63,153 nucleotides of DNA from an uncultured Gammaproteobacteria bacterium (lineage in GTDB: Bacteria; Patescibacteriota; Microgenomatia; UBA12405): assembly GCA_964497945.1 (NCBI GenBank), contig CAZCFJ010000001.1:1-63153 (forward strand), read 5' to 3'. Shown piece after piece: positions 6,635-46,093 of this stretch. Numbering within the stretch: the first letter of the stretch is position 1; the number at the start of each line of letters is the position of its first letter. The notes under the pieces are model-generated. The model had not been told where the DNA came from and ran no database searches. It worked only from the letters and a program-made list of their open reading frames with translations. The translations under genes and the position numbers were made by a program.

Positions 6635-6643
6635 AATAAATCA

Positions 6644-7303
6644 ATGAAATTACTCCTCACTTCAGCTGGCATTACCAATCAAACTATTCTGCAGGGTCTT
6701 GATGAATTGGCTGGCAAACCCTTAGATCAGTTGAAAGTTGCTTTTATCCCGACAGCCGCCAATTTAGAATCCGGGGATAAAGATTGGCTTATTGACGACC
6801 TTCGTCGTTTAAGTTTTTTAAAATTTAAACAAATTGATATCGTCGATATCTCTGCTCTTCCAAAAGAAATTTGGCAAAAAAGATTAGAAGAATCTGATGT
6901 TTTATTTGTCGAAGGTGGTAACACTTATCATTTAATGTATTGGTTTAATCAATCCGGTCTATCAAAAATTCTTCCAAAATTATTAGAAACTAGAATTTAT
7001 ATTGGTGTTAGCGCTGGTACAATTATTACCACTCCAAGTATAATTAACGCCGATTTTGAGGCTAAACCTCTCAAAGAAATTCATGAAGAAATTTTTCATG
7101 ATGGGTTAAATTTGGTTGATTTTATGGTTGAACCACATGTTAATTCTGAATATTTTCCCGAGTCAACTCTAAAAAATTTAGAAACTCGATCACAAAAATA
7201 TCAATATCCTATTTACGCTATTGATGATGAAACAGCCATTAAAGTTGATGGTGATAATATAGAAGTTATTAGTAATGGAGTTTGGAAAAAATTTGAAAAA
7301 TAA
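6644..7303 (+). CDS. Peptidase S51 family (dipeptidase E-like)
   Basis: Contains KLLLTSAG, FVEGGNTYHL and the nucleophile-elbow-like IGVSAGTII. Confidence 0.7.
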   Translation: MKLLLTSAGITNQTILQGLDELAGKPLDQLKVAFIPTAANLESGDKDWLIDDLRRLSFLKFKQIDIVDISALPKEIWQKRLEESDVLFVEGGNTYHLMYWFNQSGLSKILPKLLETRIYIGVSAGTIITTPSIINADFEAKPLKEIHEEIFHDGLNLVDFMVEPHVNSEYFPESTLKNLETRSQKYQYPIYAIDDETAIKVDGDNIEVISNGVWKKFEK

Positions 7304-7305
7304 TT

Positions 7306-7896
7306 ATGAATCGAGAAAATTATTTAAACGCTGTTAAAAATTCATTGGAACAAAATATTTTTTATCATTCTTTGGCTTTGGAAGCCTGTATGGGTGGAAT
7401 TTATGATTATTTTTCTCAAAACAATTTACTTAAATCAGATGAATTATCACGAGAGGATTGGACTTTAGCTGGTCTAATTCATGACATTGATTATGTCGGT
7501 GAATTTAAAGAATCTCACCCCAACAAAACCAGGGAAGCTCTCTCAAAATTTAATTTAGAAATTACTGATGACGTCGACAAGTTAGTCAAATCACACGCTC
7601 CCAAAATTTCTGGAATTAATCCGACCACTCAAGCTCAATGGTCTATTTTTTGTGCCGACAGTTTAACTGGTTTAATTGTCGCCGTTGCTTTTGTTTATCC
7701 TTCTCGAAAATTAAGTGATGTTAAAGTCAGTTCAGTTCACAAAAGATTTCTCAAAGAACCTCGTTTTGCTGCCGGCACCCGCCGCGATGAAGTCAAAATG
7801 TGTGAGTTATCAGAAGGTCTAAATATTCCTCTCGAAAAATTTATTGAAATTTGTCTTACTTCCATGCAACAGATCGCCCCAGAAATTGGGTTATAA
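7306..7896 (+). CDS. HD-domain metal-dependent phosphohydrolase
   Basis: HD signature LAGLIHDIDYV; about 196 aa. Confidence 0.6.
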   Translation: MNRENYLNAVKNSLEQNIFYHSLALEACMGGIYDYFSQNNLLKSDELSREDWTLAGLIHDIDYVGEFKESHPNKTREALSKFNLEITDDVDKLVKSHAPKISGINPTTQAQWSIFCADSLTGLIVAVAFVYPSRKLSDVKVSSVHKRFLKEPRFAAGTRRDEVKMCELSEGLNIPLEKFIEICLTSMQQIAPEIGL

Positions 7897-8257
7897 TTAC
7901 TCTGTGAGTCAATCATTAATTCTCGCCAAAAGTTTTCTTAATCAAATAGTTGAAGTAGTTATTGATAAACCACTGGGATGTACTTATTCAAAATATAAAA
8001 CCTATTTTGAGGTTAACTATGGTTTTATTCCTAATACAAAAGCTCCGGATGGTGAAGAATTAGACGCCTATGTTCTAAAAGTTGACCAGCCTTTAGAAAA
8101 ATTTGTTGGTAGGGTAGTGGCTATCATTCATCGTCTCAATGATGACGATGATAAATTAATTGTCGTTCCCGACGGTGAAACCATTACCGATGAAGAAATT
8201 AATAAACTAACTCATTTTCAAGAACAATTTTTCCAACACCAAATAATTAGAAAATAA
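7844..8257 (+). CDS. Short inorganic-pyrophosphatase-like protein. The start is uncertain: ATG 7844 overlaps the upstream gene by 53 nt, and GTG 7904 is an alternative.
   Basis: Contains NYGFIPNT, PDGEELDAYVL and NDDDDKLIVV, which resemble the family I PPase motifs NYGFIPxT, DGDPLDVLV and DxxDxKI. It is shorter than a typical PPase. Confidence 0.5.
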   Translation: MKFVLLPCNRSPQKLGYNYSVSQSLILAKSFLNQIVEVVIDKPLGCTYSKYKTYFEVNYGFIPNTKAPDGEELDAYVLKVDQPLEKFVGRVVAIIHRLNDDDDKLIVVPDGETITDEEINKLTHFQEQFFQHQIIRK

Positions 8258-8382
8258 AATAAATAAAGGCTTCTCCCTTTTTTACTTGCCCGCCTGTGGA
8301 GGGAGGGGAGATGTTGAACGAAGTGAAACAGAGAGGTTTTGTCTTTTGCGTTTAATCTGCGTAGATTTTAGCCCTTAATCTC

Positions 8383-8391
8383 TGTTAAAAT
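8383..8391 (+). promoter_or_regulatory. Candidate extended -10 promoter element (TGtTAAAAT) for serS
   Basis: tgttaaaat ends 9 nt before ATG 8401. Confidence 0.35.
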
Positions 8392-8400
8392 ATTCCAATT

Positions 8401-9669
8401 ATGATTGACATCAATTTGCTCCGACAAGAACCGGAAACCGTCCGTCAAGCATTAATTAATCGTCAAAAAGATTCATCCGTCGTTGACGAAATTATCAAAC
8501 TCGATTCCTCCCGCCGTGATCTTTTATCTAATGTTGAAAAACTTCGTGCTGATCAAAATATTCTCAGTCGTCAATTCAAAGGTAAACCAACAGAGGAACA
8601 AATTAAACAAGCCGGATCAATTAAAGAAAATCTTAAAAAATTAGAAACCGAATTAAAAGAAGTTGAAGACAAACAAAATTTAATTTTAGAAGAAATTCCT
8701 AATATTCCAGCGCCAGATGTTCCAGTTGGCAAAGATGATTCAGAAAATCCAGTTTACAAAACAGTAGGGGAACCGACCAAATTTGATTTTCAACCACTCG
8801 ATCATGCTGATCTTGGTGAAAAATTAGACATTATTGATGTCAAAAAAGCTGCCCAAGTCTCAGGTTCTCGTTTTGGTTATTTCAAAGGTCAAGGTGCTGT
8901 TCTCGAAATGGCTGTCATGTTTTATGCCTTCCAAAAACTTATCAAAAAAGGTTTTATCGGTATGATTCCTCCTGCCATGGTCAAAAGTTCTAGCGAATGG
9001 AAATGTGGTTATGCCAGCAACAAAAATTTATTTAATGCCTATTATTCTGCTCCCGAAGATGATTTAGTTTTTATCTCCAGTTCCGAACATGCTGTTGTTC
9101 CATATCACATGGAAGAAATTTTGGATGCTAATAATTTACCCTTAAAATACGTCAATTTTTCACCATGTTTCCGTCGTGAAGCCGGCACTTATGGTAAAGA
9201 TATGAAAGGTATGTTGCGGGTTCATTTTTTCAACAAAGTTGAAATGAATATCTTTACTCTTCCTGACTACAAAATTTCTGATGACATGTGTCTCGAAATG
9301 TTAGCCAACGAAGAAGAAATTATGCAGGAATTTGGTATCCCTTATCAGGTTGTCAAAAATTGTACCGGTGATTTACCTCAACCCAATCGTCGTATGTATG
9401 ATATTAATTCCTGGTTCCCCGGTCAAAACGCTTATCGTGAAACTCAATCGTGTAGTAATTGTGGTGATTATCAAGCCCGACGTCTCAACACTAAAGTCAA
9501 AATTAATGGCAAAAACGAATTTGTTCATATTCTCAACGCTACCATGATTACTGATCGAGCTGTTTTGGCTATCATCGAAAATCATCAACAAGCCGATGGT
9601 AGTGTCATTATTCCCGAATGTCTGCGTCCTTATACCAACTTTGACGTTATCAAACCTTCACAAAGCTAG
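8401..9669 (+). CDS. serS: Seryl-tRNA synthetase
   Basis: N-terminal coiled-coil arm, class II motifs CFRREAGTYGKD and TMITDRAVLAIIENHQ. Confidence 0.95.
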   Translation: MIDINLLRQEPETVRQALINRQKDSSVVDEIIKLDSSRRDLLSNVEKLRADQNILSRQFKGKPTEEQIKQAGSIKENLKKLETELKEVEDKQNLILEEIPNIPAPDVPVGKDDSENPVYKTVGEPTKFDFQPLDHADLGEKLDIIDVKKAAQVSGSRFGYFKGQGAVLEMAVMFYAFQKLIKKGFIGMIPPAMVKSSSEWKCGYASNKNLFNAYYSAPEDDLVFISSSEHAVVPYHMEEILDANNLPLKYVNFSPCFRREAGTYGKDMKGMLRVHFFNKVEMNIFTLPDYKISDDMCLEMLANEEEIMQEFGIPYQVVKNCTGDLPQPNRRMYDINSWFPGQNAYRETQSCSNCGDYQARRLNTKVKINGKNEFVHILNATMITDRAVLAIIENHQQADGSVIIPECLRPYTNFDVIKPSQS

Positions 9670-19185: not shown

Positions 19186-20211
19186 ATGCCAAAAGCAGTT
19201 AAAGTAACTTTTACTTTCGTTTTAGTCCTAGTTTGTCTTTCATTTGGGATTTTTTATTCTGCTATAAATTTACTGGCTAAAAAATTAAATCAAACACCAA
19301 ATCATCTGACTAATTTTATTCAACAAATTACTCAACCAAATCCTTATAAAAACCAAGATAAAGTCAATTTTATAATTCTTGGTCTTGATAAACGTGATGA
19401 CTCGCTGGAAAAGACCGAAACTACCGATACTCTTATTTTTGCCTCATTAAACCGCAAAGATAATAAAATTAATCTCATTTCTATTCCTCGCGATCTCTGG
19501 TTTTATGACTTAAATGCCAAAATTAACGAAATTTATCCTTTATCTCTTAAAGAAACAGACAAATTCTCGTTTATTAAAGATAAATTTCAAAAACTAACTG
19601 GGCAAAAAATTGATCATGTTTTAATTCTGACTACCGATAATCTAATTCAATTTGTAAATTTAATTGGTGGTGTTGATGTTAATCTAGAAACTGGTTTTAT
19701 TGATAAACAATATCCTAATCCAGATTATATTAAAGATCCAAAATCTGGTGCTCCAATTTATAAAACCATTGAGTTTAAAGCCGGTCAAGTTCACTTAGAT
19801 CAATCAAACATAACTGAATTTGTTCGTTCTCGTCATGGCGGCGAAACTGCTGCTCAAGGTGGCACTGATTTAGGTAGAATTCAACGTCAACAATTGGTTA
19901 TTCAAGCTATTTTAGATAAAATTAAAAGCGGTACTTTTATTCAAAAATCATCACAAATATTTGATCTCTATCGTCTTTGGAATGAAAATATCATCAAAGA
20001 TATCTCTGACATTCAAGTTTTTCAAATTTTTGCTTCAATTGCCGAGAATTTATCAAAAATTTCTCTCAATAAAATTGAAATTAAAGTTGGTACCACCACC
20101 AAAGACGGTCTCATCTATCACCCAACTACTTTTGTCAATAAACAATGGGTTTTTGTTCCTGCCGATAAAGAATATAAAGCTTTTCAACAATTTTTCTCCG
20201 ACTCCATCTAA
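19186..20211 (+). CDS. LytR-CpsA-Psr (LCP) family glycopolymer-to-peptidoglycan ligase
   Basis: N-terminal TM segment, then TDTLIFASLNRKDNKINLISIPRDLW and RSRHG..GTDLGRIQRQQ. Confidence 0.85.
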   Translation: MPKAVKVTFTFVLVLVCLSFGIFYSAINLLAKKLNQTPNHLTNFIQQITQPNPYKNQDKVNFIILGLDKRDDSLEKTETTDTLIFASLNRKDNKINLISIPRDLWFYDLNAKINEIYPLSLKETDKFSFIKDKFQKLTGQKIDHVLILTTDNLIQFVNLIGGVDVNLETGFIDKQYPNPDYIKDPKSGAPIYKTIEFKAGQVHLDQSNITEFVRSRHGGETAAQGGTDLGRIQRQQLVIQAILDKIKSGTFIQKSSQIFDLYRLWNENIIKDISDIQVFQIFASIAENLSKISLNKIEIKVGTTTKDGLIYHPTTFVNKQWVFVPADKEYKAFQQFFSDSI

Positions 20212-23579: not shown

Positions 23580-23612
23580 AATCCCCTGTCTTTCGACAGG
23601 GGATTAATTTTT
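23580..23612. terminator. Bidirectional intrinsic terminator between convergent genes
   Basis: 11-bp stem aatcccctgtc/gacaggggatt with loop tttc. It is flanked by aaaaa on the 5' side and aattttt on the 3' side, giving a U-tract on both strands. Two small GC hairpins precede it (23548-23562 and 23564-23576). Confidence 0.75.
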
Positions 23613-23634: not shown

Positions 23635-24264
23635 TTAGAAACCTCGGATTTTCTTTCTTAAAGCCAATCCTGAAATACCGGCAGTAATTACACCAATAGT
23701 TTCAAGAACCAAAGCTGGATTACCAGTTTCTGGAACAATCACACCACTTCTGGTTCCAATATAATAAGTGGCATCATCTTTTTCGTTGATACCGTCAACA
23801 CTAGCTTTAGCTACGTTTGTTTCTTTAGCTAAAGTTTTAACTTCCTCAGCCTTATCAATTTTAGCTCTAATTAAAAATTCTCGAGAATCTCCGGCATTAA
23901 GTTCATCAATAGTCCATTCAATTTTATTATCAGTACTATTGTAGGTACCTGGAAAGAAGATTAATTTTAAAAATGGAGGTAATTCATCGGTTACCTTGAT
24001 ATTTTTCATCTTGGTAGTACCAGTATTAGTTACTTTCACTTTAAATTCCAAAACATCATCTTCAATAAAAACTTTTGTCGAACTAGAAATATTATCGACA
24101 TAATCTGAAGAGTGAATTGGTCTTAATTTCTTATCAATGGACAGAGTTTTTCTATTATCCTCACTTGAATAAGAATCTGCCTTAACTTTGGCAGGATTCA
24201 AAGAAGATCCAACCACTAAAGTGGCCAAAGTAGCAACTAAAAATAAACCTTTATTTAATTTCAT
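23635..24264 (-). CDS. Surface protein with a DUF11-type repeat domain and a C-terminal PETG sortase sorting signal
   Basis: Signal peptide and KVKVTNTGTTKMKNIKVTDELPPFL (DUF11-like). The C-terminus is VPETG, then a hydrophobic stretch, then RKKIRGF. Confidence 0.7.
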   Translation of the reverse strand: MKLNKGLFLVATLATLVVGSSLNPAKVKADSYSSEDNRKTLSIDKKLRPIHSSDYVDNISSSTKVFIEDDVLEFKVKVTNTGTTKMKNIKVTDELPPFLKLIFFPGTYNSTDNKIEWTIDELNAGDSREFLIRAKIDKAEEVKTLAKETNVAKASVDGINEKDDATYYIGTRSGVIVPETGNPALVLETIGVITAGISGLALRKKIRGF

Positions 24265-24356
24265 TATTATCTATCTAATAAATAATTATAGGCCATTATA
24301 TAAGCAAAACGTCTATTTGTCAAGTTAATCCATATATTCACCAAACCAGATACTTT

Positions 24357-24365
24357 TGTTATACT
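24357..24365 (+). promoter_or_regulatory. Candidate extended -10 promoter (TGtTATACT) at the head of the glycosylation cluster
   Basis: tgttatact ends 10 nt before ATG 24376. A ttcacc -35 candidate lies 17 nt upstream (24337-24342). Confidence 0.4.
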
Positions 24366-24375
24366 CATATTTAGT

Positions 24376-25104
24376 ATGAACAAACCTATTATTGATGAGT
24401 TATCTGTCTTCTTCCCTTGTTATAACGAAGAAAAAAATATCCAAAATACTGTCTCCAAAGCTGTTCCTGTGTTAAACAGATTAGTCAAAAAATGGGAAAT
24501 TATTCTTATTAATGATGGTTCAAAAGATAAAACTGGCCAAGTTTTAGAGAAAATTCAAAAACAATATCCAAAACAAGTTAAAATCATTACCCATAATCCC
24601 AATCGCGGCTACGGTGGCGCTCTCAAAAGTGGTCTTTATAATTCCCAGTATCAATGGATTACTTTTACCGATTCCGATGGTCAATTCGATTTTTCTGAGA
24701 TTTCTAATTTGATCAAAAAACAACAAGAGACCAAAGCCGATGTTGTCATTGGTTATTATCTTTCCCGTCAAGTTTCCAAAAGTACTATTATCACTTCAAA
24801 AATTTGGGAGTTAATCGTTTTTGTTCTTTTTGGTCTCAAAGTTACCGATATTGATTGCGGCTTTAAATTAATCAATAAAAAAGTCGTTGATACAATTCCC
24901 AAGCTCGAAGCCGAAAGGGGGGCCTTCATTAGTAGCGAATTTTTAATTAAAGCCAAAAAATCCGGTTTTAAAATTGTCGAAATTGGTGTCCATCATTATC
25001 CGCGAACTGAGGGTAAGGCTACCGGACGAAACATTAAAGTTATTTTAAAAAGTTTTTCTGATCTTTTCCGTCTTTGGTTTAAAATTAACTTTCATCGTGC
25101 TTAA
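24376..25104 (+). CDS. GT2 glycosyltransferase, polyprenyl-phosphate sugar synthase type (DPM1/GtrB/ArnC-like)
   Basis: Contains FPCYNEEKNI, INDGSKDKTG, NRGYGGALKSG and FTDSDGQFD. Confidence 0.8.
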   Translation: MNKPIIDELSVFFPCYNEEKNIQNTVSKAVPVLNRLVKKWEIILINDGSKDKTGQVLEKIQKQYPKQVKIITHNPNRGYGGALKSGLYNSQYQWITFTDSDGQFDFSEISNLIKKQQETKADVVIGYYLSRQVSKSTIITSKIWELIVFVLFGLKVTDIDCGFKLINKKVVDTIPKLEAERGAFISSEFLIKAKKSGFKIVEIGVHHYPRTEGKATGRNIKVILKSFSDLFRLWFKINFHRA

Positions 25105-26581
25105 AATCAAAAAAATACTCTTTTCAAATTGGTTACTTATTTCCATCATCCTCTTGGGTTCTTTCCTTCGACTCTACAAAATAGGGGATTATATGGAATT
25201 TTTAGGTGATCAAGGCCGGGACGTTTATATTATTCGTGATTTTCTCAAAAATGGCAATTTATTTTTCATTGGTCCTCAAACTAGTATTGGTAACATGTAT
25301 CTTGGTCCTTGGTTTTATTATCTCATTGCTCCGGCTCTCTTAATTTCCAACTTCAATCCGGTTGGTCCAGCAATTTTTATTGCCTTAATTAATATCGCTA
25401 CTATAATTCTTATTTATTTTGTTTGTCAAAAATGGTTTAACCGATCTATTGGATTAATTTCCGCGTTTCTTTTTTCCATTTCTCCAGTGGTTATCAAATA
25501 TTCCAATTTTATTTGGAATCCCAATATTATGCCTTTTTTTGCCCTTTTATTTATCTATTTCTTCTTTGAAGCCATTTTTAAAAATCATTACAAGCTCTTT
25601 ATTTATGCCTCCATCGCCTTTGTTATGGCTATTAATAGCCATTATCTGGGTTTAGCCTTATTACCTTTGCCCGGTATTTGTTGGTTTTTTTTACTTATCA
25701 AGTTTATTAAATCCAAATCAAAATACCTTAAACCATTTCTCCTTAACTCATTTTTTGCTTTATTAGTCTTTATTATTTCTCTTACTCCTCAAATTCTTTT
25801 TGATATTAAACATAACGGCCAAAATATTAATGCCTTGTTCCATTTCTTTACCTACCGCGAAACTACTGTCAATATCAAACCATACAAGGCAATTCCCCAA
25901 CTGCCGGCAATTTTTAATCAAATCAATACCGACCTCATCTCTGGTTGTCAAATTATCCCGGGGATTATCATTAGTTTCGTCCTCATCACTCTAATCACCA
26001 TCTATCTTTTCCGGAAAAAATTAACCAATAAACACTATCTTATTATTTTAGGTTGGTATTTTTTTGGTTTAGTTTCCTTAGGCCTTTATAAACAACATCT
26101 TTATGCCCATTACTTTGGGTTTTTGTTTCCTGCTATTTTTATTATTGTCGGAGTTTTGATTAATAAATTTAAAATTGTTGGTATACCGCTCCTAATCTTT
26201 ATTACTTATTTATCGTTTACTAATAATCTATTTATTCAAAAGCCAAATTACCAGCTTCAACACGCCAAAAATATAGGTACCGCCATTAATAATCATCTCT
26301 ATTCGAATGATGGTTTATACAATATATCAATGTTAGCCTCATACAATGATTTCCGGGCTCAAGCCCCCAGATACTTTGTCAATCAAAATCAACTTTTATC
26401 AATGGAGGAATATTCTTCGGCCAAAACTTTATTTATCATTGTTGATGACCCATCAAAATGGCCCGATAATATTAACTCCGATATTTGGGAAATAAATGTT
26501 TTTAAAGAAAATTCCCAATATAAAGTAACTGAAGAATTTACTAGTTCCGACAATACAAAAATTTTTAAATTATCAAAATAA
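25097..26581 (+). CDS. Polytopic membrane protein, GT-C-fold glycosyltransferase-like (ArnT/PMT_2-like)
   Basis: At least 10 predicted TM segments, the first-loop acidic motif FLGDQGRDVYI, and a soluble C-terminal tail. The GTG start overlaps the upstream GT2 gene by 8 nt. Confidence 0.6.
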   Translation: MLKIKKILFSNWLLISIILLGSFLRLYKIGDYMEFLGDQGRDVYIIRDFLKNGNLFFIGPQTSIGNMYLGPWFYYLIAPALLISNFNPVGPAIFIALINIATIILIYFVCQKWFNRSIGLISAFLFSISPVVIKYSNFIWNPNIMPFFALLFIYFFFEAIFKNHYKLFIYASIAFVMAINSHYLGLALLPLPGICWFFLLIKFIKSKSKYLKPFLLNSFFALLVFIISLTPQILFDIKHNGQNINALFHFFTYRETTVNIKPYKAIPQLPAIFNQINTDLISGCQIIPGIIISFVLITLITIYLFRKKLTNKHYLIILGWYFFGLVSLGLYKQHLYAHYFGFLFPAIFIIVGVLINKFKIVGIPLLIFITYLSFTNNLFIQKPNYQLQHAKNIGTAINNHLYSNDGLYNISMLASYNDFRAQAPRYFVNQNQLLSMEEYSSAKTLFIIVDDPSKWPDNINSDIWEINVFKENSQYKVTEEFTSSDNTKIFKLSK

Positions 26582-26596
26582 ATTCAACTTATTTTG

Positions 26597-26602
26597 TATA
26601 AT
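26597..26602 (+). promoter_or_regulatory. Candidate internal -10 box (TATAAT) 6 nt upstream of ATG 26609
   Basis: ttgTATAATaaaactATG read directly. Confidence 0.3.
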
Positions 26603-26608
26603 AAAACT

Positions 26609-27376
26609 ATGAATCAATTATCTATTGTTATTCCTTGCTATAACGAAGAAAATAATCTCAAAAGAGGCGTTTTAAATCAAGTCTATGATTTTCTAAAAAA
26701 TCAGAAATTCAACTGGGAGGTTTTAGTTTGTAATGATGAATCTACTGATAATAGTCTTAAATTAATTCAAGAATTTGTTACTAAACACAAGGGTTTTCGA
26801 GTTTTAGATTTACCTCATGGTGGTAAACCATCGGCAGTTTGGGGCGGTATTCAACAAGCTAAATATCCTATTGTCTTATTTACCGACATGGATCAGTCCA
26901 CTCCTCTCAAAGAATCACTTAAATTACTGCCTTATTTTGACCAAGGATACGATGTTGTTATTGGTTCACGCGGTATTAATCGCGAAGGCAATTCTCTAAT
27001 CAGAAAAATCATGGCCCGTGGATTTCTTTTGGGTCGTCGATTATTTTTATTGTCCAATATTATTGACACCCAATGTGGTTTTAAAGCTATTAAAACTGAT
27101 TTAGCCAAAAAAATCTTTCCTAATCTCCAATTCTTTAAAGACAAAAGTGATACCAAAGGCTGGCGGGTTTCTGCCTTCGATGTCGAATTGCTTTTCATGG
27201 CTCAGAAATGGGGTTACAAAATCAAAGAAGTTTTAGTCGATTGGAAAAACGAAGATTCTAGCACTACCAAAGGTGACGATTCCAAACGCTTCAAAAAAGA
27301 ATCAAAACAGATGCTCCAGGAAATTATTCGGGTCAAACGTAATGACCTTCGTGGTTTATATGATCAAAAAAAATAA
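26609..27376 (+). CDS. GT2 glycosyltransferase, polyprenyl-phosphate sugar synthase type
   Basis: Contains IPCYNEENNL, CNDESTDNS, FTDMDQSTP and DTQCGFKAI. Confidence 0.8.
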   Translation: MNQLSIVIPCYNEENNLKRGVLNQVYDFLKNQKFNWEVLVCNDESTDNSLKLIQEFVTKHKGFRVLDLPHGGKPSAVWGGIQQAKYPIVLFTDMDQSTPLKESLKLLPYFDQGYDVVIGSRGINREGNSLIRKIMARGFLLGRRLFLLSNIIDTQCGFKAIKTDLAKKIFPNLQFFKDKSDTKGWRVSAFDVELLFMAQKWGYKIKEVLVDWKNEDSSTTKGDDSKRFKKESKQMLQEIIRVKRNDLRGLYDQKK

Positions 27377-28883
27377 TTGGGGATTAAAAATATTCCTTTC
27401 CCTTATAATTATCGGAGTCTATTTTTTTACTCGACTTCAAAATCTTACTTCGATTCCTGTTTTTGGTGATGAAGCTATTTATATTCGCTGGTCACAAATT
27501 ATCAAAAATGAAGAAACCCTTCGTTTTATTCCCCAAACTGATGGTAAACAACCACTTTTTATGTGGCTTACTGCCGTTTTACTTCGATTTCATTTTGATC
27601 CTCTTATAACTGGTCGTCTTGTGTCTGTTTTAGTCGGTTTTATTAGTCTTATTGGAATTTTTATAACTACTTGTGTGGTTATCGATTTTTTCAATCCTTC
27701 TCGTGATCCAATTAAATTCATTAAAGAATCCATCAGAGACAACTTTTATTACGGTTTTCTTTCATCATTGATTTATCTCTTTATCCCTTTTACTTTTTTC
27801 TTTGATAGATTATCAGTTCCTGATAATCTGCTTTCAGCCTTCGGTATTTGGTCACTTTTGTTTTCATTACTCTTAGCTAAATTTCGTCGTCTTGATCTGT
27901 CCTTAATCCTAGGTATGATTTTAGGTCTTGCCTGGTTAACTAAATCTCCGGCTATCTATTTTATTGCTTTATCAATTTCTACTTTTTTTGTCTTTAATTT
28001 CAAACGAATTAATACTTATTATTTGCCTATTATTTCATCGATTATTGCTTTTTTAATTTACAATATTCTTCGACTTGGTCCTCAATTTAATATGATTTCT
28101 CTTCGTAATCGGGACTATGTTTGGACCTTATCAGAAATTATCAAACATCCATTCGATCCACTAATACCTCATTTACACGATACTTTAATGATTTTTGGCC
28201 AATATATTTCTTGGCCAATTCTAATCTTCGCTCTCGTTGGTCTTTTCTTATTCTTTTTTTATCAAAAAAACACCCATCTTTTCGTTATTCTCGGGTGGGC
28301 ACTTTTACCTCTAATTGCCAATTCTGCCATGGCTAAAGTTTTTACCGCCAGATATATTCTTTTCATTATTCCTTCAATCATAATTCTTATTAGTGTCGGT
28401 TTATCTGTATTTTTTAAAAACAATATTTCTCGAATTATCTTTGTTTTAATCCTTCTTATTCCTAATTTATTTTGGCTCAAAAAAATTAGCACTGATCCTT
28501 TTCATATTCAATTATTAAGCACTGAAGCCGGTTATCTTAGCGATTGGACCTCTGGTTGGGGTATTAAAAATTGTGCTGATTATCTAAAAGAAAGATCAAA
28601 AGTCGCCAATGTTATTGTCGGTACCGAAGGTTCTTTCGGTACTTTACCCGATGGACTCCAAATCTACACTGACGGCACCAAACAACTTACTATAATCGGC
28701 CTTGGACTAGGTTTTACTTCCGTTCCTGATAATTTAAATAACGCCAAAAAATTTGGCGATGAAGTTTATATTATTGCTAATCAGTCAAGATTAAAATTAA
28801 ATTCTTTAGAAATGGATAAAGTCAAAATTATTCAAAAATATTCAAAACCAGATAACGATTATTTGTTGTTAATTCAAATATGA
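27360..28883 (+). CDS. Polytopic GT-C glycosyltransferase-like protein (PMT_2/ArnT-like)
   Basis: First-loop motif VFGDEAIYIRW, then DGKQPLFMW, many TM segments and a C-terminal soluble domain. ATG 27360 overlaps the upstream GT2 gene by 17 nt. Confidence 0.7.
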   Translation: MIKKNNWGLKIFLSLIIIGVYFFTRLQNLTSIPVFGDEAIYIRWSQIIKNEETLRFIPQTDGKQPLFMWLTAVLLRFHFDPLITGRLVSVLVGFISLIGIFITTCVVIDFFNPSRDPIKFIKESIRDNFYYGFLSSLIYLFIPFTFFFDRLSVPDNLLSAFGIWSLLFSLLLAKFRRLDLSLILGMILGLAWLTKSPAIYFIALSISTFFVFNFKRINTYYLPIISSIIAFLIYNILRLGPQFNMISLRNRDYVWTLSEIIKHPFDPLIPHLHDTLMIFGQYISWPILIFALVGLFLFFFYQKNTHLFVILGWALLPLIANSAMAKVFTARYILFIIPSIIILISVGLSVFFKNNISRIIFVLILLIPNLFWLKKISTDPFHIQLLSTEAGYLSDWTSGWGIKNCADYLKERSKVANVIVGTEGSFGTLPDGLQIYTDGTKQLTIIGLGLGFTSVPDNLNNAKKFGDEVYIIANQSRLKLNSLEMDKVKIIQKYSKPDNDYLLLIQI

Positions 28884-30130
28884 AATTTTCCCAAAAAAAA
28901 TTATTTTTAATCATGTTATTAGCCATTTCTATTCGAGTTTTTTTAATGCTTTTTAGCTATCATCCTGATCTGGCAGGACAAACCTTATCTAGCTATTTCT
29001 TTGCTTCAAAAAACATTTTTAATATTTATGACTACCTTCTTAATCTTAGCCCAAATCATCCGTTGGTAAAAAACTTTGGTGTTGGAGATATTTTTATATA
29101 TCCACCGTTAACTTATTTTACTTTGGGGATTTTCCAAAAAATTCTTTCTCCGTTCAATATTTACCCATTTATTCAAAACATTATGAATGGGGTTAATATT
29201 TATACCATCTCTAATCTCAATATAAATTTGTTTTTACTAAAACTGCCATATCTTTTTATCGATATTCTTCTGGCTTATTTATTGACCAAATTATTTAATA
29301 ACGATAAGCAAAAAAAGAATATTTTTATTTTATGGCTCTTCAACCCAGTTACTCTTTATACCACTTTTTGCATGGGGGTCTTCGATATTATTCCAGTTCT
29401 TTTTACTGTACTTTCCTTAATTTTTATAAAAGACAAAAAATATTGTTTAAGCGCTGCTATGCTGGGTATCGGAGCTGCTTACAAAATGTATCCTTTATAT
29501 TTACTCCCGATTTTATCTTTTGCCACTTCAAAAAACTTTAAAGATTTCATCAAAATCAATTTTGCTGGGGTTATTCCGTTAATATTGACTAATATTCCAT
29601 TCATAACCTCTAGTGCCTATCGATACATGGTTTTTAGTCCCAAAAGTCAAAAAATGCTTTTTATGGAATGGATGATGACTAACGCTGAAGGTATTTATCC
29701 TTTTATTTTATTAACTACCATATTAATAATATTTGCTTCTCAGAAAAAAGATTTATTCACTAAAATTCCGGCTCAATTTTATCTTATTTTTTTTCTTATT
29801 CTATTTTCAGTTACCCACTATCACCCCCAATGGTTCATTTGGGTTACCCCGTTTATTTTAATTGACTTAGTTGCAAACAATTTTAAAAATTTCTGGAGCT
29901 ACCTATCTTTATTTGCTATTTATACTTTTATTGTCTTCACTTTTGAAAACTCACTCTCAGTTGGTTTATTCGCTGTTATTAATACCAATCTGAATAATTT
30001 TACAGGAACCGCTAATATTATTTCCAAATTTACTGATATTTTTACCTTAAAAAGCATCCTTAGGAGTGTTTTTGCTGGAATTAGTTTATACTTAAGCCAC
30101 GATTTGCTTGTTAAAAAACAATCAGAATAA
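28880..30130 (+). CDS. Polytopic membrane protein, a divergent member of the second GT-C-like family in this cluster
   Basis: The N-terminus (SYHPDLAGQ ... IYPPLTYF) is similar to the 41674, 42907c and 46863 proteins. ATGA overlap with the upstream gene. Confidence 0.5.
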   Translation: MKFSQKKLFLIMLLAISIRVFLMLFSYHPDLAGQTLSSYFFASKNIFNIYDYLLNLSPNHPLVKNFGVGDIFIYPPLTYFTLGIFQKILSPFNIYPFIQNIMNGVNIYTISNLNINLFLLKLPYLFIDILLAYLLTKLFNNDKQKKNIFILWLFNPVTLYTTFCMGVFDIIPVLFTVLSLIFIKDKKYCLSAAMLGIGAAYKMYPLYLLPILSFATSKNFKDFIKINFAGVIPLILTNIPFITSSAYRYMVFSPKSQKMLFMEWMMTNAEGIYPFILLTTILIIFASQKKDLFTKIPAQFYLIFFLILFSVTHYHPQWFIWVTPFILIDLVANNFKNFWSYLSLFAIYTFIVFTFENSLSVGLFAVINTNLNNFTGTANIISKFTDIFTLKSILRSVFAGISLYLSHDLLVKKQSE

Positions 30131-30135
30131 TCTTT

Positions 30136-31923
30136 ATGTCTAAAATTTTTTCAAAAATTCGAACATTTATCTTTTGGTTTATTAAACAAAAATACTTTCC
30201 TTACGTTTTAATTATTGTCTTATCAATTCCTGCTTTTTTCTTCTTTTTTAAACCGGGAGTATATTGGAACATGCATGATGATATGCAAATGATTCGTCAG
30301 TTAGAATTTGAAAAATGCCTTTATGACGGCCAAATTCCTTGTCGATGGACCCCTGACTTAGGATTTGGTTATGGTTATCCTTTATTTAATTTTTATCCAC
30401 CATTACCGAGTATTATTGGCCAAGTTTTTCGTACTTTTGGTTTTGACTTTATGACCACAGTGAAATTAGTGGCCGTTCTTCAATTTATTTTAGCTGCTTG
30501 TTTTATGTATTTACTTGTCTCATCAATTTTTGGTATTACCGGCGGTCTTATTTCCGCTTTATTTTATACTTATGCTCCTTACCATGCTCTTAACATTTAT
30601 GTCCGTGGAGCTATGAATGAAGCTTGGGCATCTGTCTTTTTTCCACTTATTCTCTATTTTTCTAGAAAACTTATCTTAGAAAAGAAACCAAAATCCATCA
30701 TTGGTTTAGGAATATCATTCAGTTGTCTTCTCTTGTCACACAACCCCATGGCTTTAACTTTTACCCCAATACTTTTTATCTGGTGTATTTTTTGGATTAT
30801 AACCGAATTTTCCAAAAAAACGTCAATTTTAAAAAATATTCAAAAACAACTTTCTACTATTTGGGGACTTTATTTGTCCGGCATTTTATCTATCGGTCTG
30901 GTCGCTTTTTTTACCTTTCCTGTTCTTACAGAAACTAAATATGTCAGCATTGATTCCATGTTTAATGGCTATTATTATTTTTCAGCCCATTTTGTTTCGC
31001 TTTTCCAAATGTTTATTAGTAACTTTTGGGGTGATGGGGGATCAATCTGGGGACCAAATGATAGTATGTCATTTATGATTGGTTATCTTCATTGGGCAAT
31101 TCCTCTTTTTATTACCATCATGGTTTTTGTCAATTTTTTAAAAACCAAAAAAATTAACTCAAAGATTCTTCTTTCTGTTATTTTTGCTTTTATTGGGTTA
31201 TTTACCGCTTTTATGTGTCATGAAAAATCGACTCCTCTTTGGTTCATTTTTCCGATTATTCAAAAGGTTCAGTTTCCTTGGAGATTTTTAAACTTAACTA
31301 CCTTTGCTTTTTCTTTTACTGTAGGTGTTTTGCCAATAATTTTTTCCCAAATTTTCCGACTCAAAGATAAATTTATTAGTATTATAACCACTATTATTTT
31401 AATAATTTTATTTATCGTCAATATTAAATATTTCTATCCGGTTCACAGTGGACCTATTACTGATAACCAAAAGTTTTCTGGTTTAAATTGGGAACGACAA
31501 ATAACCTCGGGTATCTATGACTATCTTCCAAAAACTGCTGCTAAAGCCGCTATTTCGCCGGCTCGGGAATATATTGATGAAATTGACCCAAAAGAGGCTC
31601 TTATAAATATTTCTGGACAGCAAAAAGGCACAGATTGGTTACTTTTTACAGTTTCTTTAAGTCAGGAAGCAAAAATTACCATTTCCCAGTTAGCCTTTCC
31701 TAACTTTATTATTACCGATAACAATCAAAAAATTAACTATCAAATTGACCCTGAATTCGGCAGAATGATCATCAATTTAAAATCAGGTCAACATCAAATC
31801 TTTGTTAAATTAACCAACACTCCAATAAGAACTATTTCTAATTACATCTCACTTGTAACTCTAATCGGTTTAAGTGTCTATCTATTAAAACCTCTATGGA
31901 CCAAATTGATCTTCAAGAAATAA
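30136..31923 (+). CDS. Large polytopic membrane protein (595 aa), GT-C-like, no paralog in the window
   Basis: First loop MHDDMQMIRQLEFEKCLYDGQIPCRWTPDLGFGYGYPLFNFYPPLP, more than 10 TM segments, and a C-terminal soluble domain followed by a TM segment. Confidence 0.5.
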   Translation: MSKIFSKIRTFIFWFIKQKYFPYVLIIVLSIPAFFFFFKPGVYWNMHDDMQMIRQLEFEKCLYDGQIPCRWTPDLGFGYGYPLFNFYPPLPSIIGQVFRTFGFDFMTTVKLVAVLQFILAACFMYLLVSSIFGITGGLISALFYTYAPYHALNIYVRGAMNEAWASVFFPLILYFSRKLILEKKPKSIIGLGISFSCLLLSHNPMALTFTPILFIWCIFWIITEFSKKTSILKNIQKQLSTIWGLYLSGILSIGLVAFFTFPVLTETKYVSIDSMFNGYYYFSAHFVSLFQMFISNFWGDGGSIWGPNDSMSFMIGYLHWAIPLFITIMVFVNFLKTKKINSKILLSVIFAFIGLFTAFMCHEKSTPLWFIFPIIQKVQFPWRFLNLTTFAFSFTVGVLPIIFSQIFRLKDKFISIITTIILIILFIVNIKYFYPVHSGPITDNQKFSGLNWERQITSGIYDYLPKTAAKAAISPAREYIDEIDPKEALINISGQQKGTDWLLFTVSLSQEAKITISQLAFPNFIITDNNQKINYQIDPEFGRMIINLKSGQHQIFVKLTNTPIRTISNYISLVTLIGLSVYLLKPLWTKLIFKK

Positions 31924-33338
31924 AACACAAAACTACCAGTAGTGTTATTTTTTTATCACTCAGAAACCTGGGTATCCAAGCAATAGCCTTTATTGGCTTT
32001 TTTCTCTTAAGTTATCTTTTAGGCACAAACGAAGTTGGTGTTTTTGCTATCGTCGCTGAATCTGTAAGCATTCTTGGTTATTTTTCCGATATAGGGCTAG
32101 CTGCTGCTTTAATTCAACAAAAAGATGAGGTTACCAAAGACGAACTTCAAACAACTTTTTGTATTCAACAAACGCTAGTTATGATTGCTCTAATCATAGC
32201 TTTTCCTATTGTCAGCAAACAACATTTAGGTTTCAATGAAATCTGGATTGTTATCTCTCTCTGCTTTTCCTTTATGGCCGCTTCACTTAAAACAATCCCG
32301 TCAGTTCTTCTGGAAAGAAAATTAAATTTTAAACTTCTGTCTACCATCGATATTATCGAAAATATTACTTTTTACCTTATAGCCGTAATTTTTGCTTTTC
32401 TAGGTTTTGGAACTCTCTCGTATGCTATTGCTACGTTTGTCCGTAGTTTACTTGGTCTTATTATAATATACAAATTTATCTCATGGCCAATTGGTTTTTC
32501 ATTTTCCAAAAATGTCGCTAAAAAACTTTTTAAATATGGTGTCCCTTATCAAATGAACTCATTAATATCGGTAGCAAAAGATCGATTATCAAACCTTTTT
32601 GTTGCTCAAATTATTGGCACTAATTCATTTGGAATTTTAGCCTGGGCTCAAAAAGGTCCTCGAATGCCATTAAGTTTTATGGATGCGATTATGAAGATAA
32701 CTTTCCCGACTTTTTCCAGGCTTCAAGATCATAAAGATTTACTAAAAAAATCACTTAATAAAAGTCTTTTCTTTATTGCCTTAATTGTATTTCCCGCCTT
32801 AGTTGGAATATCATTTATTGGCCTAGATTTCATCTACATTGTTCCAAAATATACCAAATGGTTGCCGGCAATTTTACCCATGTATTTATACGCCTTTAAT
32901 AGTGCCATTGCTGCTATCACGACACCAATTACCAATGCTTTTAATGCTATAGGAAAAATAACTCTAACCACAAAATTTATGGTTCTGTGGACTATATTAA
33001 CTTGGATATTTTTCCCTACGCTTAGCTGGAAATTTGGATATATGGGCACTGTCGTCGCCTCTGTAATTGTTGGTATTAGTTCATTTATTGTTTGGTTTGT
33101 TGCTCAACGGGAATTTGGGTTCAGTATATTTGAATCTGTCAAAAAGCCATTTCTTGGTTCAATTTTAATGGGACTAATATTATTACTAGTCAACCAGTTT
33201 AACTTAAATCATTTATTAAATGTGATAATCAAAATTATTATTGGTTGTTTAACGTATTTTATTTTTATCATTTTCTCTTCAAAAGACGAAATTAATTGGT
33301 TTTGGCAACAAATTCAATGTCTCAAAAACAAAAAATAA
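31896..33338 (+). CDS. Wzx-like (MOP superfamily) polysaccharide/oligosaccharide flippase
   Basis: 480 aa with about 12-14 TM segments. The N-terminal organisation (SLRNLGIQAIAFIGFFLLSYLLG..VGVFAIV) is typical of Polysacc_synt proteins. Confidence 0.7.
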   Translation: MDQIDLQEIKHKTTSSVIFLSLRNLGIQAIAFIGFFLLSYLLGTNEVGVFAIVAESVSILGYFSDIGLAAALIQQKDEVTKDELQTTFCIQQTLVMIALIIAFPIVSKQHLGFNEIWIVISLCFSFMAASLKTIPSVLLERKLNFKLLSTIDIIENITFYLIAVIFAFLGFGTLSYAIATFVRSLLGLIIIYKFISWPIGFSFSKNVAKKLFKYGVPYQMNSLISVAKDRLSNLFVAQIIGTNSFGILAWAQKGPRMPLSFMDAIMKITFPTFSRLQDHKDLLKKSLNKSLFFIALIVFPALVGISFIGLDFIYIVPKYTKWLPAILPMYLYAFNSAIAAITTPITNAFNAIGKITLTTKFMVLWTILTWIFFPTLSWKFGYMGTVVASVIVGISSFIVWFVAQREFGFSIFESVKKPFLGSILMGLILLLVNQFNLNHLLNVIIKIIIGCLTYFIFIIFSSKDEINWFWQQIQCLKNKK

Positions 33339-44347: not shown

Positions 44348-46093
44348 ATGAAAAGCAAAAGTAAAATAATCTTATTCATTATAATCCTTGCCGCCGCAAT
44401 TCTTAGATTTTATCAATTAGATTCAATACCTTATCCCCTTAATGGTGATGAAAAAGCTTTTGGTTACTATGCATGGTCAATTTCTCATTTCGGTACAGAT
44501 GAATATAATAATCGATTTCCTTTGTATTTTCCTTCAATCGGGGACTATAAATACCCTGTATATGCTTATACTTCCGCCATTTTTTCCTTAATTTTAGGAC
44601 TAAATCCAATTCTTCCCAGACTCGTTTCCTCACTTGCATCTATTTTAATGATTCTCATAATTTATAATTTTTCTAAAATTCTTTTTAAATCAGAAAAAAT
44701 AGCCATAGTTTCGGCAACCTTACTGGCAATTTCCCCTTGGAATCTAACTTTCAGCCGTACCGCCTCCGAATCAAATTTAATGACATTCCTCTCTTTTTTT
44801 GGATTTTTCTTACTCTATAAATACTTTTTTGTTAGCTCCAAAAATAAACATCTATTTTTTTCTATTATTCTCCTCACACTTTCATTGTTTACCTATTCTG
44901 CAAGTAGAGTATTTATACCATCAATGTTATTTTGTATTTTTATTTCAACCATTTTTTTTGCTAAAAAAAATACTATTAAAAAATCATTTTTAATCTTTTT
45001 ACTAATTAGCCTTATCGCTATTGTTTCTTCCATCAACCCAGCTAGCCGAGCCAGAGCCAATGGTCTTTCAATTCTATCTCAACCAACCAATCGACAAAAT
45101 TGGATTTCTGAATCAACCTATACATTAGGTTTAGGCCAACCAACAAATCCCATTATTACCCGACTTTTTTTTAATAAAGCTACTGGTCTTTTAAAAGAAT
45201 TTTCCCAACGCTATTTTTCACATTTTTCCCCCGATTACCTTTTTATTAGTGGTGATGTGGTTAAACTTAACGCTACTCATAATTTTGGTAATTTTTATAT
45301 TTTTGAGATTATTTTCTTTGCCATTGGAATTGCTTTATTAATTAATAGAGCATTCAAGAAAGATTTGCCTTCATTTTTAATCCTTTTTGGAATATTTATT
45401 AGCCCAATTGCTGCTTCAGTCACTGTTGAAACCCCATCGGCCGTTCGACAGCTTGTTGGTCTACCTTATTTTTTAATAGCCATTTCTCTTGGTATAGTTT
45501 TTTTAACTCAAAAAATAAAATGGTTGACAATTCCTATTTTCATCGTCTATTTTTACTTTTTTATTTTTCTTATTTTATCTATTTTTAAAATTAAACCTTA
45601 TCAACAACCATGGACTAGTGATCAAGGTAATGAACAATTAACAAATAAGACCTGGCAAATAAAAGACCAATATAAATATGTCTTTATACCAAATGATCCA
45701 TATATCGATTTTTTGTTTTACAAACAGATTCCACCACAAAAATTTTTATCTGAAGCAAAAATAGACCCAGAAGTAATTGGCAAATGGAGTCGTGTTTTAC
45801 AATATAAAAATATTATATTTAACTCAGATAAAAATTGCCCAAAAATAGGTCAAAAAAATGCTTTATACATTTGTATTGGTGAAGAAATTTCACCTTTTGC
45901 CAAAATAGTTGATATTATCAACTATAAAGACGGTAACCCTCACTATTTACTCATCGACTTTCCTGGGGGTGACCAATCAAGTCAAAATTTATCTGGAAAA
46001 ATTAAATACATAAAACCTCAAGATATGGATAGTAGATGGCCAAAAGGTATTTTTACTAATCCAAATCAGTACTATTTAAACTTAACTCTATGA
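44348..46093 (+). CDS. PMT/ArnT-like GT-C glycosyltransferase, paralog A of a six-member family
   Basis: Contains NGDEKAFGYYAWS, FPSIGDYKYPVYAY, ISPWNLTFSRTASESN and HFSPDYLFISGD, plus the C-terminal NDPYIDFLFYKQIPPQ. Confidence 0.75.
   Translation: MKSKSKIILFIIILAAAILRFYQLDSIPYPLNGDEKAFGYYAWSISHFGTDEYNNRFPLYFPSIGDYKYPVYAYTSAIFSLILGLNPILPRLVSSLASILMILIIYNFSKILFKSEKIAIVSATLLAISPWNLTFSRTASESNLMTFLSFFGFFLLYKYFFVSSKNKHLFFSIILLTLSLFTYSASRVFIPSMLFCIFISTIFFAKKNTIKKSFLIFLLISLIAIVSSINPASRARANGLSILSQPTNRQNWISESTYTLGLGQPTNPIITRLFFNKATGLLKEFSQRYFSHFSPDYLFISGDVVKLNATHNFGNFYIFEIIFFAIGIALLINRAFKKDLPSFLILFGIFISPIAASVTVETPSAVRQLVGLPYFLIAISLGIVFLTQKIKWLTIPIFIVYFYFFIFLILSIFKIKPYQQPWTSDQGNEQLTNKTWQIKDQYKYVFIPNDPYIDFLFYKQIPPQKFLSEAKIDPEVIGKWSRVLQYKNIIFNSDKNCPKIGQKNALYICIGEEISPFAKIVDIINYKDGNPHYLLIDFPGGDQSSQNLSGKIKYIKPQDMDSRWPKGIFTNPNQYYLNLTL

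Follow-up and report, generated by a model that had tools for sequence, protein, structure and literature searches.

Two overlapping glycosyltransferase gene pairs of a Microgenomatia genome as predicted polyprenyl-phosphate-sugar synthase and GT-C modules

The window analyzed here, a stretch of 63,153 nucleotides (nt), is contig CAZCFJ010000001.1 (contig C1) of assembly GCA_964497945.1, which is titled as an uncultured Gammaproteobacteria bacterium and is placed by GTDB in the Patescibacteriota (Microgenomatia; UBA12405). The assembly consists of 664 kb in 53 contigs and is approximately 86% complete. Between positions 24376 and 28883 the window carries two successive gene pairs, in each of which a family 2 glycosyltransferase (GT2) gene is followed by an overlapping gene for a polytopic membrane protein, and it is these pairs, as candidate modules of a polyprenyl-phosphate-sugar synthase with a glycosyltransferase of GT-C fold, that are the subject of this report. 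The four genes are as follows.

24376-25104, plus strand: GT2-1, 242 amino acids (aa), GT-A fold without transmembrane (TM) helices, PF00535, predicted polyprenyl-phosphate sugar synthase
25097-26581, plus strand: GT-C-1, 494 aa, GTG start, polytopic, ArnT/PMT-like GT-C
26609-27376, plus strand: GT2-2, 255 aa, ATG start, predicted GT-A glycosyltransferase without TM helices, predicted second synthase
27360-28883, plus strand: GT-C-2, 507 aa, ATG start, polytopic, PMT_2 family

The overlaps of 8 nt and 17 nt, which had been noted in the first-pass annotation of this DNA, were confirmed from the open reading frame (ORF) coordinates. The sequence shared by GT2-1 and GT-C-1 is GTGCTTAA, and the overlap of GT2-2 with GT-C-2 is 17 nt when counted from the ATG at 27360 or 35 nt from an alternative ATG at 27342, which would give GT-C-2 six extra residues. 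Both pairs are presumably translationally coupled. As overlapping junctions are the rule across the whole cluster and are not peculiar to the two pairs, the overlap alone says nothing special about them. An antisense ORF of 88 aa at 26932-27198 was treated as spurious.

GT2-1 contains the motifs FPCYNEEKN, NDGSKD and FTDSDGQ, and with CYNEE and DSDGQ it has both the YNE and the DxDxQ signature. The best PDB relatives found by phmmer were ArnC, GtrB and PfDPMS, the last as a distant relative by sequence (E 8e-9), and both GT2-1 and GT2-2 could be aligned over their full length with the NCBIfam models for ArnC, PpgS, PgfS, the haloarchaeal Dol-P hexose transferase and AglJ. PfDPMS has been described with its signature residues, the motif 89-DADLQH-94 and an Arg117 which contacts both phosphate and mannose (PMC5526996), and the equivalents of its E12, D89/D91/Q93, S135 and R202 are retained in GT2-1. 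At the positions of PfDPMS Arg117, Arg131 and Ser135, where the alignment is loose, GT2-1 has Tyr, possibly Thr, and Ser, and GT2-2 has Arg, Arg and Ala. The Arg of an 'SRQ' motif was common to GT2-1, ArnC and GtrB. Identity across the 120 closest homologues of GT2-1 was 77-95%, the named ones being Shapirobacteria or Woesebacteria, which are groups of the Microgenomates/Patescibacteria. A prediction of donor specificity from the residue equivalent to Asp39 was rejected, since Asp occupies this position in the UDP-using enzymes ArnC and GtrB as well as in the GDP-using DPMS.

An AlphaFold (AF2) model of GT2-1 built on 68 sequences had a pLDDT of 95.2. Foldseek comparison of this model with the PDB, which included the comparison with GtrB that had been proposed earlier, returned only ArnC, GtrB or PfDPMS as the top 25 matches (TMq 0.61-0.81; ArnC and PfDPMS 0.73-0.81), and GT2s that are not synthases appeared only from rank 26, at TMq <=0.68. 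The structural alignments extended over about 230-241 columns and covered the whole protein, including the two amphipathic interface helices (residues 135-152 and 220-239) that define the class as additions to the fold. Residues 220-237 gave the highest hydrophobic moment of the protein (0.71, with a mean hydrophobicity of +0.25), and residues 136-154 were hydrophobic. By sequence and modelled fold, GT2-1 is thus assigned to the polyprenyl-phosphate glycosyltransferase family.

No TM helices were found in GT2-1, GT2-2 or a third synthase-like GT2 of the window, GT2-3 (described below), and none of the three has a C-terminal TM anchor. This is no obstacle to a synthase reading, because PfDPMS deprived of residues 230-352 still reaches the membrane and has activity equal to that of the full enzyme (PMC5526996), and because GacI, PpgS and human DPM1 are also without a TM anchor, that of PfDPMS being made of four helices (bioRxiv 10.1101/180810; PMC5526996).

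GT2-2 is only 28% identical to GT2-1, which argues for an old divergence and not a recent duplication. It contains PF00535 and the motifs IPCYNEENN, NDESTD and FTDMDQS, and its best PDB matches were GtrB (2e-13), PfDPMS (2e-12, a distant relative) and ArnC. The best NCBIfam matches were PgfS, ArnC and the haloarchaeal Dol-P hexose transferase, and the protein scored 112 bits against a hidden Markov model (HMM) of the GT2-1 family. Its C-terminal helix is predicted to be basic and amphipathic. From these sequence comparisons GT2-2 is also assigned to the polyprenyl-phosphate glycosyltransferase family.

A tree of 30 GT2 domains, which took in ArnC, GtrB/YfdH, WcaA, WcaE and PgaC of E. coli K-12 together with PfDPMS and Synechocystis GtrB segments, placed GT2-1, GT2-2, GT2-3 and an enzyme encoded on another contig (C23) on the ArnC/GtrB/DPMS side with 92/88 support. 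Within the tree GT2-2 grouped with PfDPMS, ArnC and GtrB (93/90 support). The GT2s starting at 59010 and 61416 and the remaining GT2s of the window grouped with WcaA (92/80 support). GT2-1 and GT2-2 did not cluster with the glycan-extending GT2s around WcaA; to the placement of PgaC we return below.

The membrane protein of the first pair, GT-C-1, matched PMT_2 (PF13231) at 40.8 bits against a cut-off of 26.1. Its AF2 model (pLDDT 87.8) had ArnT (5f15) as the top Foldseek match (TMq 0.63, TMt 0.58). GT-C enzymes made up all 25 matches at E<=1e-3, including OST/PglB/AglB, ALG9/12 and Pmt4; matches of weaker E-value were Emb, AftB, ALG3 and PIG-M-like proteins. Judged by this model GT-C-1 has an ArnT-like GT-C fold. 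Residues E34, D38 and D42, which lie directly after the first TM helix (TM1) in the predicted first external loop, were invariant in 34 sequences. Database gene calls for GT-C-1, both for this genome (P0121, 462 aa) and for several relatives, begin at Met33 and delete TM1. The GTG start at 25097 is regarded as real because the TM1 stretch removed by the shorter call (residues 12-32) is conserved in 34 homologues, with R25 and Y32 invariant, and is modelled with confidence (pLDDT 84-96).

GT-C-2 matched PMT_2 (PF13231) at 29.5 bits against the same cut-off of 26.1 and has at least eight hydrophobic segments. The two GT-C proteins were barely alignable with each other, and searches of the PDB by sequence or profile gave no match for GT-C-1, GT-C-2 or the GT-C-1 family profile. 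A DE motif (D37-E38) in the loop after TM1 of GT-C-2 was invariant in 72 of 72 orthologues, and by analogy with the GT-C family the acidic residues of loop 1 in both proteins may be catalytic. The earlier expectation that the proteins downstream of the two GT2s have GT-C folds was therefore borne out for GT-C-1 by the model and is supported for GT-C-2, at the level of sequence, by its membership of the PMT_2 family.

To place the first pair in a wider context, 1.84 billion cluster representatives were searched with GT2-1 and the best 150 clusters (50%-identity clusters, 35-66% identical to GT2-1) were taken. Long proteins made up 54 of these 150, and Pfam domains on the same polypeptide as the GT2 were PMT_2 (17 clusters), GT87 (2), YfhO (1) and GtrA_DPMS_TM (14). 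At least 20 of the clusters were fusions with a GT-C domain, and both domain orders were present; examples are a triple GT2-GtrA-PMT_2 fusion (P0266, 923 aa), a GT2-YfhO fusion (P0290, 1008 aa) and a PMT_2-GT2 protein of reversed order (P0292, 673 aa). A profile of the GT-C-1 family matched the membrane halves of nine full-length fusions nearly end to end (259-479 bits), two of them from Candidatus Daviesbacteria genomes, and matched two shorter fusions in part. By this sequence comparison, sister lineages such as Candidatus Daviesbacteria carry the GT2-1/GT-C-1 pair as one protein, and for this reason GT2-1 and GT-C-1 probably associate physically. The possibility that the split genes represent a frameshift of a fused gene was rejected, as overlaps of -8, -4 and -19 nt recur in independent assemblies. 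The GT2-1 family also included one GT4-GT2 fusion, and LPG_synthase_TM proteins adjoined the GT2 in two loci.

Gene neighborhoods were compared in 80 loci of the GT2-1 family, found with a 12-sequence alignment and limited to one genome per species. An adjacent or fused polytopic membrane protein was present in 49 of the 80. Every Patescibacteria locus with enough sequence had a polytopic protein of 450-545 aa either fused to the GT2 or encoded downstream, the downstream gene usually having an overlap of 4-44 nt. The large membrane protein was more often encoded upstream in Planctomycetota, Chloroflexota and other phyla. Among 46 membrane neighbors there were 23 PMT_2 and 4 TMEM260-like proteins, and single neighbors matched DUF2298, DUF2079, GT22, STT3, Alg6/8 or PTPS_related. 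For the second pair, 72 of 80 related loci had an orthologue of GT-C-2 as the next gene downstream of that of GT2-2. The adjacency of GT2 and GT-C genes is far beyond chance, and by its sequence GT-C-2 is supported as a GT-C user of the PMT_2 family.

The two pairs belong to a larger block. Across Microgenomates the genes keep the order GT2-1, GT-C-1, GT2-2, GT-C-2, membrane protein of 595 aa, Wzx-type flippase, and in this genome the genes that follow GT-C-2 are as follows.

28880-30130: GT87-like membrane protein, following GT-C-2 and preceding the 595-aa protein
30136-31923, plus strand: 595-aa polytopic membrane protein (PMT_2 28.9 bits in a six-frame search; PTPS_related E 0.021)
31896-33338, plus strand: Wzx/MOP-type flippase (Polysacc_synt_3 at 7e-40)

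The 595-aa protein was found in 63 of 80 related loci. The Wzx-type gene followed the pairs in 44 of the 80, many of the remaining loci ending too early. The GT87-like gene was present in only 9 of 80 related loci, as a variable insertion in an otherwise fixed block. Many records of metagenome-assembled genomes titled 'uncultured Gammaproteobacteria', 'Pseudomonadales' and, in one case, 'Candidatus Methanoperedens' carried the Microgenomates-type block at 60-97% identity, and these titles look like mislabels.

On the pairs' other side the following features were identified.

19186-20211, upstream of the pairs: LCP ligase (LytR_cpsA_psr in the syntenic loci L002-L005)
23635-24264, minus strand: DUF11/CLIPPER surface protein with a sorting signal (sortase substrate), divergent from GT2-1
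24337-24365, plus strand: weak match to a sigma-70-like promoter, TTCACC-17-TATACT, TG preceding the -10 element, a consensus match only

The genes from GT2-1 to GT-C-2 head a transcription unit, given that a strong terminator at 23580-23605 ends the upstream unit and a divergent promoter region lies at 24265-24375. The sigma-70-like match, which lies 11 nt 5' of the GT2-1 ATG, probably marks the start of this unit. A perfect consensus promoter (TTGACA-17-TATAAT) at 24323-24295 on the minus strand drives the DUF11/CLIPPER gene, and this neighborhood is kept in the same four related loci (L002-L005). Terminator-like matches within ORFs were weak and numbered 12, against 6.7 +/- 2.5 expected by chance.

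Three further GT2s of the window had been regarded as possible synthases. The first of these is also predicted to be synthase-like.

58210-59013, plus strand: GT2-3, 267 aa, synthase-like overall, with the atypical active-site motifs PIYKQ and FIDAGMEID

The nearest PDB matches of GT2-3 were PfDPMS (4e-11) and GtrB (1e-9), and it scored 100 bits against the GT2-1 family HMM, in agreement with the earlier description. However, PxYKQ replaces YNE and FID[AS]GME(I) replaces DxDxQ, with Gly for the second Asp, so that both signatures are absent and membership of the synthase family is unsettled. At the loosely aligned positions of PfDPMS Arg117, Arg131 and Ser135 it has Lys, Arg and Ser, and its exact position in the tree was not resolved. 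Because the variant motifs are kept in 120 of 120 homologues, GT2-3 is an atypical member of the synthases at best; it appears as a conserved non-canonical active site on a DPMS-like scaffold. As had been noted, the other two GT2s (at 59010 and 61416) carry C-terminal TM helices, two or three in number, and the proposal that they are for this reason GtrB-type synthases was rejected: their catalytic domains group with the glycan-extending GT2s WcaA, TarS and chondroitin synthase, no ArnC, GtrB or DPMS match was found for them in the PDB, and with the HMM of the GT2-1 family they scored 34 bits or not at all.

A search of the rest of the genome for GtrA, one of the checks proposed earlier, found a single GtrA domain and no free GtrA gene. 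This domain forms the C-terminal half of a GT2 of 397 aa encoded on contig C23 (4637-5830, minus strand), which matched PfDPMS (5mlz) at 4e-39 over its full length and adjoins an RmlA-like nucleotidyltransferase gene; by sequence this fusion is the genome's genuine synthase of DPMS type. Contig C2 (module at 5836-8440, minus strand) carries a fourth GT2 of synthase-like character, which is 224 aa long, scores 123 bits with the GT2-1 family HMM and is overlapped by 4 nt by a gene for a 113-aa DUF2304 membrane protein (58.6 bits). This module, which has the appearance of a GacI/GacJ (PpgS/Rv3632)-like arrangement, is flanked by a 528-aa protein with 9 TM helices and by a GT4 and a 563-aa protein with 11 TM helices, neither membrane protein having a match in Pfam. 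The assembly also encodes UppS, two MraY/WecA-family proteins and three sugar nucleotidyltransferases. PMT_2 matches numbered 15 genome-wide (13 above the curated cut-off). The window holds 10 and contigs C4 (two), C10, C15 and C44 hold the rest, that on C10 adjoining a WecA/MraY-family gene. The window had been thought to make three to five donors for 15 GT-C proteins; we counted about 4-6 synthase-like GT2s in the whole genome, of which the window has three. One-to-one pairing of synthase and GT-C is therefore impossible for most of the GT-C proteins.

The absence of a small GtrA-type flippase from the window, reported in the first-pass annotation, was correct, yet the conserved block contains a flippase of Wzx type. 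The SMR family had no match anywhere in the 86%-complete assembly, and only two MOP-family (Wzx-type) genes were found in it, one of them within the block. The Wzx protein at 31896-33338 is a candidate exporter of lipid-linked sugars, by analogy with GacK, but equally of an oligosaccharide on a lipid carrier.

Sequence, fold, natural fusions and conserved synteny support the reading in which each pair comprises a polyprenyl-phosphate-sugar synthase and a GT-C enzyme that uses its product, a sugar being linked to lipid inside the cell and transferred to an acceptor outside. The likeness of the pairs to known extracytoplasmic glycosylation modules, proposed from the DNA alone, thus stands, and we give this reading a probability of about three in four. 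The evidence bears on family, fold, fusion and gene order; the chemistry, sugars, flippase and acceptor of the route in three steps that follows are inferred. GT2-1 and GT2-2 would sit monotopically on the cytoplasmic face of the membrane, held by their amphipathic interface helices, and each would move one sugar from a nucleotide sugar onto polyprenyl phosphate, a carrier lipid that is available here, UppS being encoded. The lipid-linked monosaccharide would then be flipped to the outer face, for which the leading candidate on the GacK analogy is the Wzx of the block. Finally, the cognate GT-C-1 or GT-C-2 would pass the sugar from the lipid to an extracellular acceptor, probably a cell-wall glycopolymer or a surface protein. 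The LCP ligase upstream, the many cytoplasmic glycosyltransferases and the Wzx point to a wall-linked glycopolymer.

Several observations weigh against this reading. Residue 128 of GT2-1 is Tyr (GYYxxRQ) at the position of PfDPMS Arg117, as it is in 120 of 120 close homologues, and an Arg occupies that position in 110 of 150 family representatives; Tyr128 may be the sign of another donor sugar or of another mode of acceptor binding. Both GT2s had been credited with the full set of DPM1/GtrB/ArnC-type motifs, which holds for GT2-1, whereas GT2-2 has the YNE and DESTD motifs but carries the Gln of DxDxQ one position early (DMDQS), so that this signature is only partly present, and it is also without the A-loop Arg. 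In the tree PgaC, a processive synthase of E. coli, fell on the synthase side in a placement without resolution, and for this reason the tree is supportive and not decisive. No dedicated small flippase adjoins the pairs, neither a GtrA nor an SMR gene being found beside them. No polytopic protein adjoined the GT2 in 31 of the 80 GT2-1 family loci, and donors are probably shared among GT-C proteins, and adjacency need not equal exclusive partnership. The support for the exact families of GT2-1, GT-C-1, GT2-2 and GT-C-2 is computational throughout.

Some of these points bear on other explanations of the pairs. It is possible, at well below even odds, that GT2-1 and GT2-2 make common donors for many GT-C proteins and that their adjacency to GT-C-1 and GT-C-2 reflects operon economy or the use of the GT-C as a membrane anchor. 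The excess of 15 PMT_2 matches and further GT-C-like proteins over the synthase-like GT2s would agree with this, as would a tandem GT-C array at 44348-56299 that has no synthase within it and the 31 loci in which no polytopic protein adjoins the GT2. Yet the GT2-1/GT-C-1 pair is repeatedly fused, and throughout the class the same GT-C orthologue stays with each GT2, which argues for at least a preferred partner; sharing of donors and the pair reading are not mutually exclusive. A more distant prospect, and one we consider improbable, is that both are ordinary GT2s whose acceptor is a glycolipid, a lipid-linked oligosaccharide or a compound of phosphoglycerate type, and that they lie beside GT-C genes only because a common envelope polymer is served by both. 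The family is indeed very broad, and the scores of both GT2s far below all NCBIfam equivalog cut-offs, the place of PgaC in the same half of the tree and the missing Arg117 equivalent of GT2-1 would all be accommodated, as would matches of GpgS, WrtF and other non-synthase GT2s to the GT2-1 model at TMq 0.54-0.68. But polyprenyl-phosphate glycosyltransferases account for the whole of the top 25 in structure and for every top match in sequence, the two interface helices are there, and the frequent fusions with GtrA and GT-C domains would make little sense for the extension of an oligosaccharide in the cytoplasm.

The nature of the acceptor and the path across the membrane allow further alternatives. 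Protein O-glycosylation of the Pmt/Ppm1 or PgtC2/GtrB type, with DUF11 or other surface proteins as acceptors, is kept as an alternative because a conserved and strongly promoted DUF11 protein adjoins the pairs; GT-C-1 and GT-C-2 are both PMT_2 proteins, and streptococcal GT-C enzymes modify Ser/Thr-rich regions using a GtrB product (PMC12041528). We regard it as rather unlikely, since the evidence for it comes from the neighborhood, the best fold match of GT-C-1 is ArnT and not Pmt, and the Wzx, the cytoplasmic glycosyltransferases and the LCP ligase fit a wall-linked glycopolymer. A bolder and improbable proposal is that the TM-free synthase docks on its own GT-C and that the complex hands the polyprenyl-phosphate sugar across the membrane without a dedicated flippase. 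Such docking would explain both the gene overlap here and the fusion in sister lineages. If it were true, lipid-linked monosaccharides would have their long-sought route of translocation in the membrane domain of the GT-C or at the interface of synthase and GT-C, and this flippase-free path would be relevant to organisms without free GtrA or SMR flippases.

To our knowledge the envelope chemistry of the ultrasmall Patescibacteria (Candidate Phyla Radiation, CPR) is essentially unknown. A search of the literature library used here found no relevant paper on GT-C enzymes or polyprenyl glycosylation of the CPR/Patescibacteria or on GT2::GT-C fusions, which does not disprove that one exists. The logic of multi-component transmembrane glycosylation is already textbook knowledge, and its CPR form is strongly conserved and uncharacterized. 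Under the synthase/GT-C reading the value of the two pairs therefore lies in annotation and in the choice of targets and not in a new principle. They are the most conserved part of this genome's machinery of GT-C proteins and lipid-sugar synthases, and because of this strong conservation they are good entry points to the surface sugars of these organisms. The GT2::GT-C and GT2::GtrA::GT-C fusions argue that synthase and transferase act as a unit, and as natural constructs they could serve structural work on the passage of lipid-linked sugars across the membrane.

Multi-component systems for transmembrane glycosylation include GtrA/B/C, ArnC/T, CsbB/YfhO, GacI/J/K/L and PpgS/Rv3779 (PMC11127046, PMC8035078, PMC5836110). 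ArnC/ArnT (with ArnE/F) and GtrB/GtrA/GtrC provided the nearest sequence and fold matches to the pairs described here and follow the same three-component logic (PMC11127046). ArnC and GtrB each end in two TM helices and are encoded beside a small dedicated flippase (loci L086 and L087), neither of which is found at these pairs. With PfDPMS, DPM1 and Ppm1/PpgS, GT2-1 shares the GT-A core, DxDxQ and two amphipathic helices that bind polyprenyl phosphate, and GT2-2 shares them in part. The DPMS-like gene of this genome is the C23 fusion and not GT2-1 or GT2-2, and GT2-1 also differs from PfDPMS in the Tyr at Arg117. PpgS works with the DUF2304 protein Rv3632 (as cited in bioRxiv 10.1101/180810).

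In the Firmicutes, CsbB/YfhO as well as YkcC/YkcB and YkoT/YkoS of Bacillus subtilis are likewise two-gene modules of synthase and GT-C, with several paralogous pairs per genome (PMC8035078, PMC5836110), and the GT2-1 relative that is fused to a YfhO domain (P0290) adds to this likeness. CsbB-type synthases carry C-terminal TM helices, unlike GT2-1 and GT2-2, and the GT-C proteins here are of PMT_2 type and not of YfhO type. The flippase of these Firmicutes pairs, GtcA, is encoded elsewhere (PMC8035078, PMC5836110).

The closest characterized analogue is the GacI/J/K/L system of Streptococcus pyogenes, which furnishes the group A carbohydrate with its GlcNAc side chain and has a homologous counterpart in the Epa system. 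GacI, a GT-A enzyme lacking TM helices, associates with the membrane and is active alone, and it works with the Wzx-type GacK and the GT-C GacL, an LCP ligase having been proposed for attachment to the wall (bioRxiv 10.1101/180810; PMC8035078). Unlike the Gac system, GT2-1 and GT2-2 have no DUF2304 partner beside them, and the GT-C gene overlaps that of the synthase and is fused to it in relatives. Like the Gac system, the present locus combines TM-free predicted synthases with a flippase of Wzx and not GtrA type and with GT-C proteins.

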